A stretch of DNA of 64,000 nt from an uncultured Gemmatimonadales bacterium (GCA_963708135.1 OY970192.1:1888001-1952000), one strand, 5' to 3'; counted from the first letter of the stretch, positions 1-6,439 are shown. Translations and numbers: made by a program. Notes: a model not told the origin generated them from the sequence alone.

Positions 1-3000
1 CGGTCGCGGCGCGCCCGCAAGTCGCTCGCGGATCCGCTCCCGCCAGGCCGCCTTGCCGCCGTCCGGCTGCACCACCACCAGCAGGTCCAGATCGCTGTCC
101 GGCCGCGGGTGGCCCCGCCCCCACGAGCCGATCAGTCGCACCTCCTCCACGCCCTTCAGCGCGCCGATCCGCGCACCGAGCTCGCGGATCTCTTCGGGGA
201 CCTCCGGCTCGATGCCCGCCTTGCGCAGCCCGCGATAATACAGCCCCTCCAGCCACCGGCCGAGCTCCTGGCGGGTGCGCTCGGGGGTGCGCTCGGCGAC
301 CTGCCTGATCGGCACGCGCTCCATGTACTGGGCGCGCAGCTCGATGTACGCATCCGAGCCAGCCGGTCCCTCCAGCCGAGCGGCCGCGTTCCGCAGATAG
401 AAGAAGCAGAGACGGCTGTTCAGGAGCGCGAGCACCGATCCATCGTCCGTGGCGAGAACGAAGCACTTATCGTTGACGAAGCGGCCGCCCTTGTCGAGAC
501 CGAACCGTGGCTCCCTCGTGATGATCGGATAAACGATCTTCGGCCGTTCGTAGATGTTCCGAAACGCTTTCTGCGGCTGCTGCAGCTCATACCAGGCCTG
601 CTCCGTCGCGCGCCTCTCGAGCCGCTCCCGGAACGGCGCGAGGTGCGCTTCCACGGCCGGGTACCGGCGGATGTCCACCCCGTGCGGCAAGTACAGCAGC
701 CAGCGGTCGGCGCTGCGGATGTGGTAATGCCGGACGTCGTCGCCAATGACCAGCGGCTTGATCACCTCGGCCGAGCGCGCGTCCTCCGCGATCAGGCGTT
801 CACGGGTGGCTCGATCGATCCAGAACGCCTCATTCAGACCGGTCTTGATTCCCCAGCAGATCCCGCTTGGGAGCATCTTTCCGAGTGGCTCACCAAGCGC
901 CGGCAGTCGCGCCAGGATCTCGGCCGTACGCCTGTCAACGAGCTGCCATTCCTCACCCGCGAGAGTCCCAGGATTCAACTCGAACGCGGCCTTCTCGACG
1001 GCGATTCGCAAGTCATCGAACTCGCCCAGCTCGGCGAAGCGGGCGGGCACGGCCGCGCCGCCCTTGCGGACGAAGACGAGCGCGGGCCGGACGGTAGCCT
1101 CGGGGAACACGCCCGATCCGGCGAAGTCCACGATCTCCCTGACCCGTCCGATTCGACCGATCAGCCCGCGCAGCTTCTTGCCGTAATTCGCGCGCAGGAA
1201 CTTGTTCGAGACGATCGCCCCGTACTCGCCGCCGTCGCGGAGCAGCTCGAGCGAGCGCTCGATGAAGTAGACGTACAGGTCGCTGCGGGTGGCGTAGGTC
1301 TCGTATTCCTGGCGGAGGAAGTCCTTGATCCCCTTGAACTCCTCCATACGCACGTAGGGCGGATTGCCCATCACCGCGTCGAAACCGGGACGCTCGAGCC
1401 GGTGTCCGGTCTCCGCGTCGTGGAAAGCCTCCCCGAACTCGACCTCCCAGTGGAAGAAGACGTGCTTCGCGCGGAGGCGCGCGAGCGCTTCGGCGTCCAC
1501 GATGGCCGAGGCCTCCCCCCACTGCTGCCGGTCCGATTTGAGGGCGCCGAGCAGCGCCGCATACCTGTCCTCGTCGATCGACAGGCCGAAGAACGTGGCG
1601 CACCAGACATCGCCCACGAAACGCGCGCGATCGAGGAGCCGGTCGGCTTCGGCCAGCAGTTTCTTCTTGAGCGCGACGTCGCGCAGCGAGTCGGTGGCCG
1701 TCGCCTCGATCTGGCGCGTCATGCCGACGGCCTGGCGGAGCGCGAGCGCGAGGGCGTCCCCGAAGGCGTTGTACTGGCCCGCTGCCTCGAGCCGGGCCGC
1801 CTTGCCCCTTGCCGGCGGTCGGCTCATCCGTTCGATGCGCCCGCCGAGCAGGGAGTCGCCGACCTTCAGGTGATGGTCCAGGAAGTTCAGCGGCTTGTTC
1901 TTCTCGACTGTCGCGAGCCAAAGCGACAGCTTCGCCAGCTCGACGGCGCGCGGGTTCCTGTCGACGCCGAAGATGCAGCGCTCGACCACCAGCCTTCCGA
2001 CGTGCTCCGGATCGAGGTGGGCGAGCTCGCCAAGTGATCCCTGGTCGTCCGCATCGACAGCCGCGACCGCGGCGCGCACGAGGTACGCCGTCGCGGCGAC
2101 GAGGAAGTGCCCGGAGCCCATCGCCGGGTCCAGTACGCGCACCGAGAGGATCTCGCCCGCGCGCCGGCGCTCGACGAGCGGTGCCAGCGTACGCTCGACA
2201 ATGTACTGGACGACGTAGTCGGGCGTGTAGTAGGAGCCGGTGACCTTGCGCTCGCCCTTGTCGTTGGCGAGGTAGACGTCGCCTTCCGGGACGGCGGTGC
2301 GGATCACGCGGCCCTTCTCCCGGATCTCCGGGAGCGTCGCGTCGGCGACGCGGAGGACATACTCGAGCAGGCCCTCGTAGACCGAGCCGAGGTGGCGCAC
2401 GTCGAGCGGGCCGTAGTCCACATAGTGGAGCGATCGCGTGTCCGGATCGGAGGCCCGAGAAAGCAGGTCGATCGCTTCGGCGAGCTGCGGGTCGGGAACG
2501 TAATGGTTCTCGAGCCAGGGATGCCGGTCCGGGTCGAACAGACCTCCGTCGTAGACGGGCAGACCGTCGAGTCTCCAATCCGGGTGCCCGTCGATGATCT
2601 GGAAGAGGTCCGCCAGATCGTTCCAGAAGTCGCGGCCGTGAGGGAAGCAAGTCTGCTCTTCGTCGCGTACGCGCTTTGCGCGCTCGCGTAGCTGCAGGAG
2701 GCTCTTGCTCCGGTAGGTCGGGTTGGTGCGCACGGGCAGGAGGTCGCGCGCTTCCGCGAAAAGCACGAACAGGAGTCTGAACAGCAGCGTGAGCGAGTTG
2801 TCGAGGATCGTGCGGCCCAGCGTCTCATCCCGCCGCAGCAACGCCGCATCCACGCCTGCGGACGCCGCGAAGCCCGCGCACAGCGCCGTGACCGCGCGGT
2901 AGGCACGCGGCTTGAGCTCCGCTTCGACGGCGCGCGCATAGCTCAGCGAATCGGCGCGCGCATTGTCCACCCAGCGCAGGCCGTGTTGATCCGGGCGGAA

Positions 3001-3693
3001 CGACGGCGGAGCGAAGAACAGGTAGAAGTAACGGAACGCCTCCTCCGCCCGGATGGTTGCGCCCTCCTCCGTGAGCGCCAGCGGCTCGTCCCCGAGCAGC
3101 GCGGCCAGATCCAGTGAGAAGTACGCCGTATCGGCGAAGTCCACGTCGCGATTGTAGAGGCGCCACTCGCGGCCGTTCGTCAGGATACCCCACGGCTGTT
3201 CCGCGCGGAAGAGGTAGTTGACGATCTGTGTGGACGGCACGCGGTTCGGCTCGAGATCGCCGGGCCCGCCGCGGGCGTCCAGGGGGCGGTCCCACCGCTT
3301 CGCTTCGAGCACGGCCAGAGCTTGCTTGAGCACCGAGCGGCGTTCTCGCCCGGCGGCGGCGCGGCGTGCATCCTCATCGGTTGCGAACAGCGCATAATCG
3401 GGGAACTGTGTCGCGCCCAGGCGCTGCGAGCGCGGTTGCACCTCGTACCCCCATCCAAGCGCCTGAAGCACCGGACGAAGCAGGTGCTCCTCCGTCTGCG
3501 CCTCATTCGCCGCGGTAAGGGTGTCGCCCTCGCGACGGTACACCTCGCGGACGCGCTCTCGCAGCGCGCGCGCGGCGCCGGCGCACTCATCCCACTGGCG
3601 GTCTCTCCGCAGGCGCGTCTCGAGGAAGTGGTTCGAGAAGAGCTGCCGATTGCCGTAGGCTGGTGCGAACTGGAGCTCAGCGTGATTGGTCAT
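1..3693 (-). CDS. Type IIG/Eco57I-like fused restriction endonuclease-adenine methyltransferase with in-frame nucleotidyltransferase (MNT) domain; 3' end lies beyond the window
   Basis: Translated by hand from ATG 3693 (MTNHAELQFAPAYGNRQLFSNHFLETRL). It shows PDYALF...LEAKRW (PD-D/ExK), QIVNYL..WGILTNGREWRLY, RKVTGSYYTP (motif X), VLDPAMGSGHFL (motif I), FDAVMGNPPY (motif IV), LALLNS...QYMERVPI (TaqI_C-like), then IGSWGRGHPRPDSDLDLLVVV. The ORF track lists no minus-strand ORF in this frame, consistent with no stop down to base 1. Confidence 0.9.
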   Translation of the reverse strand, partial: MTNHAELQFAPAYGNRQLFSNHFLETRLRRDRQWDECAGAARALRERVREVYRREGDTLTAANEAQTEEHLLRPVLQALGWGYEVQPRSQRLGATQFPDYALFATDEDARRAAAGRERRSVLKQALAVLEAKRWDRPLDARGGPGDLEPNRVPSTQIVNYLFRAEQPWGILTNGREWRLYNRDVDFADTAYFSLDLAALLGDEPLALTEEGATIRAEEAFRYFYLFFAPPSFRPDQHGLRWVDNARADSLSYARAVEAELKPRAYRAVTALCAGFAASAGVDAALLRRDETLGRTILDNSLTLLFRLLFVLFAEARDLLPVRTNPTYRSKSLLQLRERAKRVRDEEQTCFPHGRDFWNDLADLFQIIDGHPDWRLDGLPVYDGGLFDPDRHPWLENHYVPDPQLAEAIDLLSRASDPDTRSLHYVDYGPLDVRHLGSVYEGLLEYVLRVADATLPEIREKGRVIRTAVPEGDVYLANDKGERKVTGSYYTPDYVVQYIVERTLAPLVERRRAGEILSVRVLDPAMGSGHFLVAATAYLVRAAVAAVDADDQGSLGELAHLDPEHVGRLVVERCIFGVDRNPRAVELAKLSLWLATVEKNKPLNFLDHHLKVGDSLLGGRIERMSRPPARGKAARLEAAGQYNAFGDALALALRQAVGMTRQIEATATDSLRDVALKKKLLAEADRLLDRARFVGDVWCATFFGLSIDEDRYAALLGALKSDRQQWGEASAIVDAEALARLRAKHVFFHWEVEFGEAFHDAETGHRLERPGFDAVMGNPPYVRMEEFKGIKDFLRQEYETYATRSDLYVYFIERSLELLRDGGEYGAIVSNKFLRANYGKKLRGLIGRIGRVREIVDFAGSGVFPEATVRPALVFVRKGGAAVPARFAELGEFDDLRIAVEKAAFELNPGTLAGEEWQLVDRRTAEILARLPALGEPLGKMLPSGICWGIKTGLNEAFWIDRATRERLIAEDARSAEVIKPLVIGDDVRHYHIRSADRWLLYLPHGVDIRRYPAVEAHLAPFRERLERRATEQAWYELQQPQKAFRNIYERPKIVYPIITREPRFGLDKGGRFVNDKCFVLATDDGSVLALLNSRLCFFYLRNAAARLEGPAGSDAYIELRAQYMERVPIRQVAERTPERTRQELGRWLEGLYYRGLRKAGIEPEVPEEIRELGARIGALKGVEEVRLIGSWGRGHPRPDSDLDLLVVVQPDGGKAAWRERIRERLAGAPRP

Positions 3694-3696
3694 CGG

Positions 3697-5244
3697 CTAC
3701 AACGGCATGTTCCCATGCTTCTTCCACGGGTTCTCGTCCCGCTTGCTCTGCAGCATGTCGAGCGCGTTGATCAGGCGGGGCCGGGTCTGGCGCGGGTCGA
3801 TGACATCATCGACGTAGCCGCGGCCGGCCGCGATGTAGGGGTTGGCGAAGCGCTCGCGGTACTCCCGCTCCCTCTCCCGGGTGGCGGCCTCGCGATCCTC
3901 CGCTTCCGCGATCTCCTTGTGGTACAGGATCTCGACCGCGCCCTTCGGCCCCATGACGGCGATCTCGGCGGTGGGCCAGGCCAGGTTGACGTCGCCACGG
4001 ATGTGCTTGGAGTTCATCACGTCGTACGCGCCGCCGTACGCCTTGCGCGTGATCACCGTGATGCGCGGCACCGTGGCCTCGCAGAAGGCGAAGAGAAGCT
4101 TGGCACCGTGCTTGATGATGCCGCCGTGCTCCTGCGCGACGCCCGGCAGGAATCCCGGCACGTCCTCGAAGACGACGAGCGGTATGTTGAAGGCGTCGCA
4201 GAAGCGGACGAAGCGGGCTCCCTTCAGCGAGCTGTTGATGTCCAGCACGCCCGCCAGCACGGCCGGCTGGTTCGCCACGATGCCCACCGCGTGCCCGCCC
4301 AGGTGGGCGAATCCCACGAGGATGTTGCCGGCGTACGCGGCGTGGACCTCGTAGAACTCGCCATCGTCCACCACCCGCCCGATCACGTCGTGCATGTCGT
4401 AGGGCCGGCTCGGCTCGTCCGGCACCACGTCGAGGAGCGCCTCGTCCGCGCGGTCGAAGGGGTCCGCTGTCTCGCGCCGGGGCGGGTCTTCCCGGTTGTT
4501 CTGCGGGATGAAGCGGAAGAGGCCCCGGATCGACTCCAGGCACTCGAGCTCGCTGTCGAACGCGAAGTGGGCGACACCGGACGTGCCCGCGTGAACGTCC
4601 GCGCCGCCGAGCCCCTCCATGTCGATGTCCTCGTGCGTGACCGTCTTCACCACGTTCGGGCCGGTCACGAACATGTAGCTGGTGCCGCGCACCATGTAGA
4701 TGAAGTCCGTGATGGCCGGGGAGTAGACCGCGCCGCCCGCGCACGGCCCGAGCACGGCGCTGATCTGCGGCACCACGCCCGAGGCGAGGGTGTTGCGGAG
4801 GAAGATGTCGGCGTAGCCGCCGAGCGAGACCACGCCCTCCTGGATGCGCGCGCCGCCCGAGTCGTTCAGGCCAATGAGCGGCGCTCCGATCTTCAGCGCC
4901 ATGTCCATGAGCTTCACGATCTTGGCCGCGTGCGCCTCCGAGAGCGAACCGCCGTACACCGTGAAATCCTGGCTGAACACGTAGACGAGTCGGGCGTGAA
5001 TGGTGCCGTAGCCGGCGACGACACCGTCGCCGAGGAACCGCTCGTCCTCCTCGCCCGCCGCGCCGCGGCCGACCGCGAAGCGGTCCAACTCCACGAAGCT
5101 GCCCTCGTCGAGCAGCAGGTCGAGCCGCTCGCGGGCGGACAGCTTGCCCCGCCGATGCTGCGCCGCGAGCCGCCTCTCGCCGCCGCCCCGCTCCGCGCGC
5201 TGGCGCAGCTCGTCCAGCTGCCGGAGCCGCTCCCGCATGTCCAT
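3697..5244 (-). CDS. pccB: Acyl-CoA (propionyl/methylmalonyl-CoA) carboxylase, carboxyltransferase beta subunit
   Basis: [48 protein letters not shown] and C-terminal KKHGNMPL motifs. Confidence 0.92.
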
Positions 5245-5245
5245 G

Positions 5246-6439
5246 TCAGCGCCCCTTCCCCGCATCCCCCGATGTGGTGTCCGCCTGCTCCAGCGTCACG
5301 AGCTTGCCGCCCTCGATGCGGACGATGAACGGCCGGCGCACCACGGCGCCGTCCCGCAGCGAGAGAATGCCCGTCGCCCCTTCGAGGTCCCGCTCCCGGC
5401 CGAGGCGCCGCGCCACTTCGCGCGCGCCGCCGCCACCCTCGAGCGCCTGGAGCACCATGCGTGTGGCGTCGAAGCCGAGCGCCGGGAACGGGTTGTCCAG
5501 CGACTTCCGGTACGCCGCTTCATACAACGAGACGAACCGGCTCCACGCCACGCGCGGACTCGAGCGCTGGAGCGGCGTGGCGGCGATCACGCCGTCGGTG
5601 TTCTCGGCCGGGAGCACGCGCAGCAGCTCGTCGCTCGTCCACGCCTCGCCGCCGAGGATCTGCAGCCCCTTGCCGGTGACGCCGTAATAGGCGAGCTGCG
5701 GCGCGATCTGGCGCACGTCGCGCTCCGGCGCGGGGATGAACAGCGCCTGCGCGCCCGACGCGAGCGCGCGCCGCAGCGGACGGGCGAAGGTCGTGGTGCC
5801 GGAGTCGTAGGGCAGGTCCACGACCACCCGGCCTCCGGCGCGCGCCAGCGCCAGCTCGAAGACCCGGGCCGTCCGCTGGAAGTCGGCGGAGCGCGGATAC
5901 AGCATGGCCACCCGCGGCCACCCGTGGCGCGCGGCATAGGCGGCGAGCGCCGCCGCGCCCCGCGTGTCCCCCGCGTTCAGCGAGTAGACGTTGGGCAGCC
6001 CATCGGGAACCGTCGAGGCGGTGGGGCTCACCAGCGCCAGCATGGAATCCGTCCGGGCGCGTCCCGCGGCCGTCAGGCCCGGGCTGAGCAGCGGGCCGAG
6101 CACGGCCACCGCGCCCCGCCGCTCCAACTCCTTCACCAACGCCGCGTCGCGCTCCGCATCGCCGGCATCGTCCAGCAGCACCAGATCTGGCACGAGGCCC
6201 CGCGGCGCCTCGTGCGAGAGCGCCAGACGGATCCCCTCCAGCACCAGGTCACCGTACTGCGTCAGGTACGGCGAGCCCGTGCGCGGCAGGATCGCGCCGA
6301 GCACCGGCCTCGCCGCCGCCTCCGGCGGCCGGCGCGCCGGCGGCTTTGCCGACGGAGTCCCCGACGGGCCGCTCCGCGCGCACGCGGCGACGAGCCCGAG
6401 GAGCCCTCCCAGCAGGAGGGCACGCGTCCGGATTTGCAC
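5246..6439 (-). CDS. LpoA-like / type 1 periplasmic binding-protein lipoprotein
   Basis: Lipobox LVAAC after a hydrophobic stretch; [22 protein letters not shown] and LEGATGILS of the periplasmic binding protein type 1 fold. Start uncertain (GTG 6439 or ATG 6484). Confidence 0.7.

Follow-up and report, generated by a model that had tools for sequence, protein, structure and literature searches.

The stretch of DNA analysed here (the window, 64,000 nucleotides, G000:C1:1888001-1952000) comes from an uncultured Gemmatimonadales bacterium and carries at its left end, on the minus strand, most of a gene for a type IIG restriction-modification enzyme that is interrupted by a second genetic element. 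A class II cassette, consisting of a nucleotidyltransferase (MNT) domain followed by a small HEPN gene, sits in an inter-helix surface loop of the type IIG gene. The core of the enzyme, which comprises a putative nuclease, a methyltransferase, a recognition domain and one further helix, reads in frame into the MNT; the HEPN gene follows directly, and the C-terminal tail of the enzyme forms a third open reading frame (ORF) behind it. We lean modestly toward the view that this arrangement makes the restriction enzyme a tethered antitoxin for the HEPN, in an addiction or guard relationship.

Architecture of the split gene

A sequence-only reading of the window had described a minus-strand frame, open from the ATG at 3693 to base 1, as a type IIG enzyme joined to an MNT domain, and had proposed looking beyond the left edge for its stop, a third catalytic Asp and a possible HEPN gene. 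The frame contains 1231 codons without a stop, as described, and runs 36 codons past the window edge to a TGA at G000:C1:1887890-1887892, giving a product of 1267 aa (P0002). The whole fusion ORF, delimited by the reading frame and domain searches, occupies G000:C1:1887890-1891693 on the minus strand (L003 11890-15693), of which window 1..3693 represents codons 1-1231 and the last 36 codons plus stop extend about 110 bases past the left window edge. Pfam places Eco57I (1.5e-35), N6_Mtase (1.7e-13) and TaqI_C (2.5e-9) on P0002, and PADLOC type IIG profiles match along its length.

The best-defined features of the core are those of the modification and recognition domains, both of which the sequence-only reading had recognised. 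The region matched by Eco57I and N6_Mtase (aa 481-863, window 1105..2253, on the minus strand like all parts of this gene) contains motif I, DPAMGSGHFL (aa 522-531, window 2101-2130), and NPPY (aa 777-780, window 1354-1365); D522-G528 and N777-P779 are invariant in an alignment of 31 homologues (A4), as in a gamma-class N6-adenine methyltransferase. Downstream lies a TaqI_C / MmeI_TRD-like target recognition domain (aa 980-1129, window 307..756), in the C-terminal position usual for type IIG enzymes, which TaqI_C matches at the value given above and MmeI_TRD at 1.9e-5, under its own cut-off. The PD-(D/E)xK nuclease of that reading fared less evenly. A PD...ExK motif is legible in the sequence (D99...E130-A-K132, window 3298..3399), its residues P98, D99 and K132 are near-invariant across the A4 homologues, and a PADLOC type IIG profile covers aa 12-453 at 3.4e-45; Pfam HSDR_N (E 0.001) and MmeI_N both fall under their cut-offs. 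The N-terminal nuclease of a type IIG enzyme is probably present, though this call is weaker. The best PADLOC match, DrmMI (3.5e-110), spans the methyltransferase part alone (aa 457-832), and no drmA, drmB or drmC gene lies among the immediate neighbours, which encode a carboxyltransferase, an AIM24 protein and a biotin carboxylase; an identity as DISARM was accordingly rejected.

In one respect P0002 departs from the type IIG pattern of a single polypeptide: its final ~170 residues are encoded in a separate ORF behind the MNT and HEPN. This displaced tail, assigned by homology, comprises 177 aa (G000:C1:1886984-1887517, minus strand; L003 10984-11517), 483-1016 bases left of the window. Compared with longer proteins, the tail gave 45 matches, all to their C-terminal ~170 residues; 38 of these 45 proteins carry N6_Mtase and/or Eco57I, and NTP_transf_2 (PF01909) is listed for none of them. 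When aligned with the contiguous enzyme P0004, the P0002 core ends at residue 1102 and the tail begins at residue 1100. A PADLOC type IIG profile matches the tail at positions 1028-1065 of its 1066, and the tail is also placed by multiple alignment and by pairwise alignments with intact relatives. Because the tail ORF is a type IIG C-terminus, the MNT has not merely been appended to the enzyme; rather, the MNT-to-HEPN cassette is nested within the gene and has cut off its tail. Hence, of the original claim of a type IIG-MNT protein, the in-frame fusion stands and the simple append does not.

The point of insertion can be placed between two helices. By the secondary structure of an AlphaFold 2 (AF2) model of the junction, the core ends in a helix (aa 1138-1158) that passes into an 8-residue linker, AGIEPEVP (aa 1159-1166; together window 196..282), and the first MNT helix begins directly after it. 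In the intact relative P0042, the matching point, mapped through a near-invariant Tyr (Y1152 in P0002, Y1009 in P0042), is the loop of 3 residues that connects helix 995-1015 to helix 1019-1029 in a single-chain model (mean pLDDT 79.0) that was used for secondary structure only. The contiguous relative P0003 is 57% identical to P0002 over 1118 residues. Exactly where the cassette is inserted in P0002, P0003 carries about 45 extra residues (approximately 1125-1170), which separate the final helix of the core from the one that opens the tail.

The three reading frames are tightly coupled. The HEPN ATG sits 14 nt before the end of the fusion stop codon, and the GTG start of the tail overlaps the HEPN stop (GTGA), with GGAGG upstream of the tail start. 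At the protein level, modelling predicts that the tail binds back onto the core. When core aa 460-1163 was modelled in complex with the tail, the ipSAE was 0.81, against 0.00 for the best of 3 controls; in a benchmark, 116 of 157 solved complexes attained the ipSAE mark, as did 2 of 215 mismatched pairs. The docking runs agree in at least 95% of contacts, partner pLDDT is at least 86, and the predicted interface joins the tail's two conserved helices (DVVRDLLAFLA, TDRLIDRIVYRLYGL) to aa 1084-1101 of the recognition domain and to the last core helix. Because the halves of a split gene tend to pass docking by likeness, this result supports re-docking of the tail without showing it.

The MNT domain and the HEPN protein

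The MNT domain spans aa 1167-1267, of which aa 1167-1231 are encoded within the window (1..195), and truncation at the window edge had blurred it: NTP_transf_2 matches the truncated protein at 7.5e-5 and the complete last 119 aa at 7.1e-8 (Pfam). Its GS (G1189-S1190, window 124-129) and DxD (D1201-L-D1203, window 85-93) lie where the sequence-only reading had put them, in GS-X10-DXD spacing, and the third Asp (aa 1233, in VDLHVY) is encoded 3-5 bases left of the window edge. The GS, the S-D-x-D and the third D are invariant or near-invariant in 50 sequences, and GS-X10-DXD and the third Asp are retained in all seven fused sequences described below. The suggested Pol-beta-type fold is borne out by the AF2 junction model (mean pLDDT 83.7, exceeding 90 across the MNT), for which the top Foldseek matches in the PDB are the MNT antitoxins 8xeo, 8xeh, 7bxo and 1no5 (E 2e-4 to 8e-4); the same list includes the aminoglycoside adenylyltransferases AadA and ANT. 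This MNT also matches two MNT-containing PADLOC defence candidates, PDC-S09 (4e-8) and PDC-M05 (3.1e-5), the latter of which has been described as unconfirmed in its role (PMC12988326).

The HEPN gene envisaged by the sequence-only reading is present directly downstream (129 aa, G000:C1:1887514-1887903, minus strand; L003 11514-11903), 97-486 bases left of window base 1. Its product is a single domain, matched in Pfam by PF05168 only (4e-22); its closest solved structure is 1ufb (1.4e-5), and a search of solved structures at E 0.01 returned no HepT chain. H64 and R98-Y99-P100 are invariant in all five aligned HEPNs, and in the HEPNs of this genome and of its relative G018 there is neither an Arg 4-6 residues ahead of His64 nor a Tyr at +2. 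By its sequence, the protein is a HEPN of the class II PF05168 type and not of the DUF86 type. According to the available part of Yao 2020 (PMC7641770), class II PF05168/PF01909 modules retain GSX10DXD and a conserved Tyr. At this locus, too, the PF05168 HEPN gene is immediately preceded by the PF01909 MNT, and the HEPN has a conserved Tyr without RX4H; Tyr99 of the RYP motif probably corresponds to the Tyr of that paper.

The order of MNT and HEPN is the canonical one: a PF05168-like HEPN lies directly downstream of 34 to 36 of the 78 free-standing relatives of this MNT. The G000 genome itself has free MNT-to-HEPN pairs and one more MNT within a span of about 16 kb (G000:C1:5113699-5114389, 5119109-5119727 and 5129983-5130213), with 29-41% identity to the nested pair. 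Other contexts include P0052 (287 aa), in which an MNT of the same clade (123.5 bits) follows an unrelated N-terminal region without a Pfam match, and a 303-aa single chain (L030 1474-2385, minus strand; G055:C392) with an N-terminal HEPN and a C-terminal MNT, an order opposite to that of the cassette. The last of these had been a candidate for a junction-spanning relative and was set aside as a HEPN-MNT fusion protein unrelated to type IIG enzymes.

The MNT and HEPN might also form a two-subunit nucleotidyltransferase, instead of an antitoxin and a toxin, on the model of the nucleotidyltransferase and helical domain of aminoglycoside nucleotidyltransferases; tethered to the restriction enzyme, it would adjust restriction by modifying that enzyme, its tail, DNA ends or a phage factor. 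The lack of RX4H in the class II HEPN is consistent with this idea, as are the presence of AadA and ANT in the Foldseek list, the PDB title of HI0073/HI0074 ('two protein nucleotidyl transferase', 1no5) and the related locus L042, where the MNT keeps its catalytic residues without a HEPN. We nevertheless consider it improbable, because the top structural matches are MNT antitoxins of toxin-antitoxin (TA) pairs, the gene order and overlap are those of a TA cassette, loss of the HEPN with retention of the MNT is the usual toxin-first decay, and the analyses that were run indicated no substrate.

Recurrence, constraint and chromosomal site

The fused layout was found at four distinct loci, all at one chromosomal site: G000, G018, G127 and L042. 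G018, which belongs to the same family but to a different genus, contains all three ORFs with 61% identity (52% residue identity to G000 over MNT and HEPN); a further locus, L041, is identical to it over 6777 bases and was counted with it once. G127, from another family of the same class, shares the layout with 45% identity to G000 over the junction piece. The 14-nt overlap of fusion and HEPN recurs identically in G018 and G127, and in G127 is followed by an ATGA overlap. In L042, a metagenome-assembled genome labelled 'Gemmatimonadaceae', the fusion and tail are present and the HEPN is reduced to a 22-codon remnant (L042 414-482), whose start overlaps the end of the fusion and whose stop overlaps the ATG of the tail (ATGA). 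To judge from these overlaps, the toxin was lost by an internal deletion that preserved translational coupling to the tail. A HMMER scan of 1.84 billion representatives with a junction profile returned four proteins at E <=1e-30 (P0049-P0052), among them P0049, a metagenome protein of 1272 aa with the full fused architecture, P0050, a metagenome fragment with TaqI_C and MNT, and P0051 (133 aa, on a 46-kb contig), which contains the last ~28 core residues, the linker and the MNT and looks like a remnant left after loss or disruption of the core. The fusion is thus not a singleton, an outcome that, with degenerate catalytic residues, would have counted against the sequence-only reading, and the fact that several related soil bacteria have retained the layout points to cooperation between the two defences. 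Two other searches added nothing to this picture: a word-index search with aa 1130-1267 against proteins of 696-2218 aa returned the query only and missed relatives found later, so that it is uninformative on rarity, and a scan of metagenome contigs gave one weak, short locus (L040, 31% identity), which was not used.

These data bear directly on whether the fusion is an assembly artefact (a misjoin or frameshift) or the relic of a type IIG gene killed by the insertion. A Logan contig of run X1, which may be the source sample, spans the core-to-MNT junction (window 36-471) with 0 differences; X1, the one DNA run found to contain the stretch (no RNA run was listed for it), is made of contigs and has low depth, and it leaves the adjoining 128 bases to the left (L003 11908-12035) uncovered, the one observation that would favour an artefact. 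Since three further, diverged loci carry this fusion, a local artefact is very unlikely, and three metagenome proteins carry the fusion as well. A dead gene is hard to reconcile with three intact frames, intact nuclease and methyltransferase motifs, dN/dS values of 0.20-0.59 and a tail that is the most conserved part of the unit. We regard this explanation as hardly credible.

The ratios of nonsynonymous to synonymous change (dN/dS, by Nei-Gojobori) between G000 and G018 are 0.31 for the core, 0.57 for the MNT, 0.59 for the HEPN and 0.20 for the tail, values that are to be read qualitatively because dS is near saturation. All parts of the unit appear from this comparison to be under purifying selection.

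The gene lies downstream of an acyl-CoA carboxyltransferase gene in G000, G018 and G007, and the tail is followed by a biotin carboxylase gene in G018, L042 and G127; in G000 alone, an AIM24-family gene stands between tail and biotin carboxylase. The restriction block is therefore found inside an acyl-CoA carboxylase operon, 3 nt past the carboxyltransferase stop (window 3691-5265; L003 8596-10970), and in all five of the family genomes examined that have no close match to P0002 or its junction (L123-L127) the carboxyltransferase and biotin carboxylase genes are adjacent.

One genome, G007, encodes core and tail in separate ORFs that overlap at GTGA; it has neither MNT nor HEPN between them (L016 1441-1470), and its core terminates in about 20 low-complexity residues after AGLDP. 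In view of the stop/start overlap, G007 is treated as a cassette-free split form and not as a frameshifted gene; it may be either a scar of cassette loss or a state that preceded insertion. In a tree of the core, built from rows 1-12 of alignment A4 (19 of its 31 rows being left out), G000, G018, G007, P0049 and P0003 form a clade with 100/100 support, within which the fused P0049 groups with the contiguous P0003 at 85/96. As the internal order of this clade is otherwise unresolved, the tree does not decide the order of cassette gain and loss.

This mixture of fused, split and contiguous forms invites the explanation that the cassette is a tolerated selfish insertion, a mobile MNT-HEPN addiction module lodged in a permissive loop with no link to restriction or phage defence, which would persist through its addictiveness and through coupled starts that keep the tail expressed. 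The split G007 and the contiguous P0003, which belong to this tight clade and lack the cassette, are what one would expect of such an element, and so are the deletion of the HEPN in L042, the weakest constraint on MNT and HEPN, the free MNT-HEPN copies elsewhere in the same genome and the rarity of the layout. Yet the diverged G000, G018 and G127 have all kept the MNT in frame with the core, the linker of 8 residues and the overlap of 14 nt, a free-standing start for the MNT has been regained in none of the seven fused sequences, and MNT fusions to type I specificity subunits (see below) hint at selection for tethering; moreover, an addictive role for the host gene would be a functional link in itself. 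On balance we think a purely selfish insertion rather unlikely, though it deserves to be taken seriously.

Proposed coupling and relation to known systems

The starting point of the mechanism that we favour is the observed anatomy: the core, with its nuclease, methyltransferase, recognition domain and single helix, reads in frame into the MNT, the HEPN is translated from the start 14 nt inside the end of the fusion frame, and the tail from the start that overlaps the HEPN stop. This anatomy, its recurrence and constraint, and the fold and catalytic motif of the MNT are observations; the steps that follow are inferred. The sequence-only reading, which is partly supported, had already proposed that the MNT might AMPylate a HEPN toxin in a guard logic like that of PrrC. 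The tail would re-dock on the core to make a whole restriction enzyme, from which the MNT would hang on its 8-residue linker. By analogy with MntA, which according to the available part of Yao 2020 (PMC7641770) AMPylates HepT through GSX10DXD, the tethered MNT would nucleotidylylate the HEPN and so render it harmless, with the Tyr that is invariant within RYP as a candidate acceptor. The restriction enzyme would thereby serve as antitoxin, and its loss, shut-off or destruction would free the HEPN as an addiction device or as an abortive-infection back-up. The benefit to such a system can be stated simply. Because the nuclease and methylase of a single-chain type IIG enzyme disappear together, such an enzyme is, alone, unable to kill cells that lose the gene; a nested TA pair would supply the missing addiction or abortive back-up. 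The toxin-first decay in L042, where the HEPN was lost and the MNT kept, also speaks for this reading.

Several observations weigh against it. L042 keeps a catalytically intact MNT without a HEPN, and G007 has core and tail without the cassette, so that the cassette can be dispensed with, and the MNT may act in some way that does not require a HEPN. The NCBIfam model MntA_antitoxin scores this MNT at 19.5 bits against a cut-off of 60, which falls short of an equivalog-level MntA match. The HEPN (...APAVPTHDLS...) lacks the RX4HXY motif of characterised HepT toxins; no RX4H was found in class II proteins, for which a different catalytic function has been suggested, and the toxicity tests described in the available part of the same paper concern class I pairs, none being seen there for class II (Yao 2020, PMC7641770). 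MNT and HEPN are the least constrained parts of the unit (dN/dS about 0.58). The layout is rare, the fusion occurring in 2 of 73 genomes of the family (including the unpublished G015 and G016, on which nothing rests) and in 2 of 401 genomes of a phylum sample. Finally, a methyltransferase-like gene was found near only 2 of the 78 free-standing relatives of this MNT, which means that linkage to restriction is no general habit of the MNT clade and is special to this lineage, with the type I specificity-subunit-MNT fusions as a possible exception.

Those fusions comprise P0106/P0199 (a cluster of 9 members), P0113 and P0172, which are Methylase_S type I specificity subunits with a C-terminal MNT of the same kind; in the source records they are called 'type I restriction enzyme S subunit'. 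A scan of viral contigs with the HsdS-MNT protein P0199 gave no match, and in a plasmid search none of 1069 records covered >=80% of P0199. The HsdS-MNT proteins may represent another instance, of independent origin, in which an MNT has been joined to a module for DNA recognition. With them in view we offer, tentatively and as less likely than not, a bolder version of the tethered-antitoxin idea, in which the restriction enzyme would be both antitoxin and sensor, the HEPN would be freed and the infection aborted when a phage removes or blocks the enzyme or stops its synthesis, loss of the gene would likewise kill the cell, and the same solution would have arisen independently in type I systems. 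If this version is true, an 'antitoxin welded to the DNA-recognition module' would be a recurrent form of immunity-suicide coupling.

Whichever reading proves correct, the locus places an antitoxin-type enzyme covalently within a restriction-methylase chain, with a HEPN partner and the severed tail in one coupled unit that has been kept in evolution. It would also be a natural case of a gene that is split by a nested cassette and assembles from two chains, and it is a compact three-gene object in which immunity-suicide coupling could be tested directly by point mutants. In a literature search that left most subscription journals and supplements outside its scope, we found no description of a fusion of an MNT to a type IIG enzyme or other restriction methylase, nor of a TA cassette nested in and splitting a restriction gene. 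Related themes do appear in the available parts of published work, and the presence of HEPN genes in restriction loci, with PrrC/EcoprrI as the paradigm, is established. HEPN nucleases linked to restriction loci have been proposed to couple immunity to suicide (Anantharaman 2013, PMC3710099; Makarova 2013, PMC3632139), PF05168 HEPNs cluster with restriction operons, and HEPN domains are stated to fuse to nucleases and helicases 'but not to the methylases' (Anantharaman 2013, PMC3710099). MNT-HEPN pairs near BREX loci are mentioned as well (PMC12839542).

Among known systems, the contiguous type IIG enzymes of the Eco57I/MmeI kind (P0003, P0004 and 43 others) share the domain order, the motifs and a homologous tail with the split enzyme, but their core and tail form one chain, which here is cut in an inter-helix loop that carries the MNT and HEPN. 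The Phd-Doc-like tvrAT pair of the pneumococcal SpnIV type I locus resembles the cassette as a TA-like pair within a restriction-modification locus; in the available part of that study its components are separate genes between hsd genes, with no fusion or split gene, and no addiction evidence was found (PMC6265443). FhepTA likewise has an MNT covalently joined to another domain, although, as far as the accessible part of the report describes it, that domain is the MNT's own HEPN (Yao et al. 2026, PMC13000451), whereas here the MNT is fused to a restriction enzyme and the HEPN is separate.

A further comparison is with PrrC, the anticodon nuclease of the EcoprrI type Ic locus, in which, in the available part of Anantharaman 2013 (PMC3710099), a HEPN-superfamily gene lies within a restriction-modification unit and the restriction protein is proposed to silence the HEPN until restriction fails. 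PrrC, however, has an ABC ATPase and is masked non-covalently by a three-subunit type I enzyme, while here a 129-aa, one-domain HEPN has as its partner an enzymatic antitoxin domain that belongs covalently to the polypeptide of a single-chain type IIG enzyme; neither the ABC ATPase nor the type Ic hsdMSR partner of PrrC is found at this locus. Another known system is the type VII HepT/MntA pair of Shewanella oneidensis (SO_3166/SO_3165; Yao 2020, PMC7641770, in its available part), which likewise has a GS-X10-DXD MNT directly upstream of, and coupled to, a small HEPN gene, and whose solved MntA antitoxins match the fold of the MNT described here. It differs in three respects: the HEPN here is a PF05168 (class II) protein without RX4HXY and not a DUF86 protein, the MNT has no start of its own and forms the C-terminal domain of a 1267-aa restriction enzyme, and the pair as a whole is nested inside another gene.

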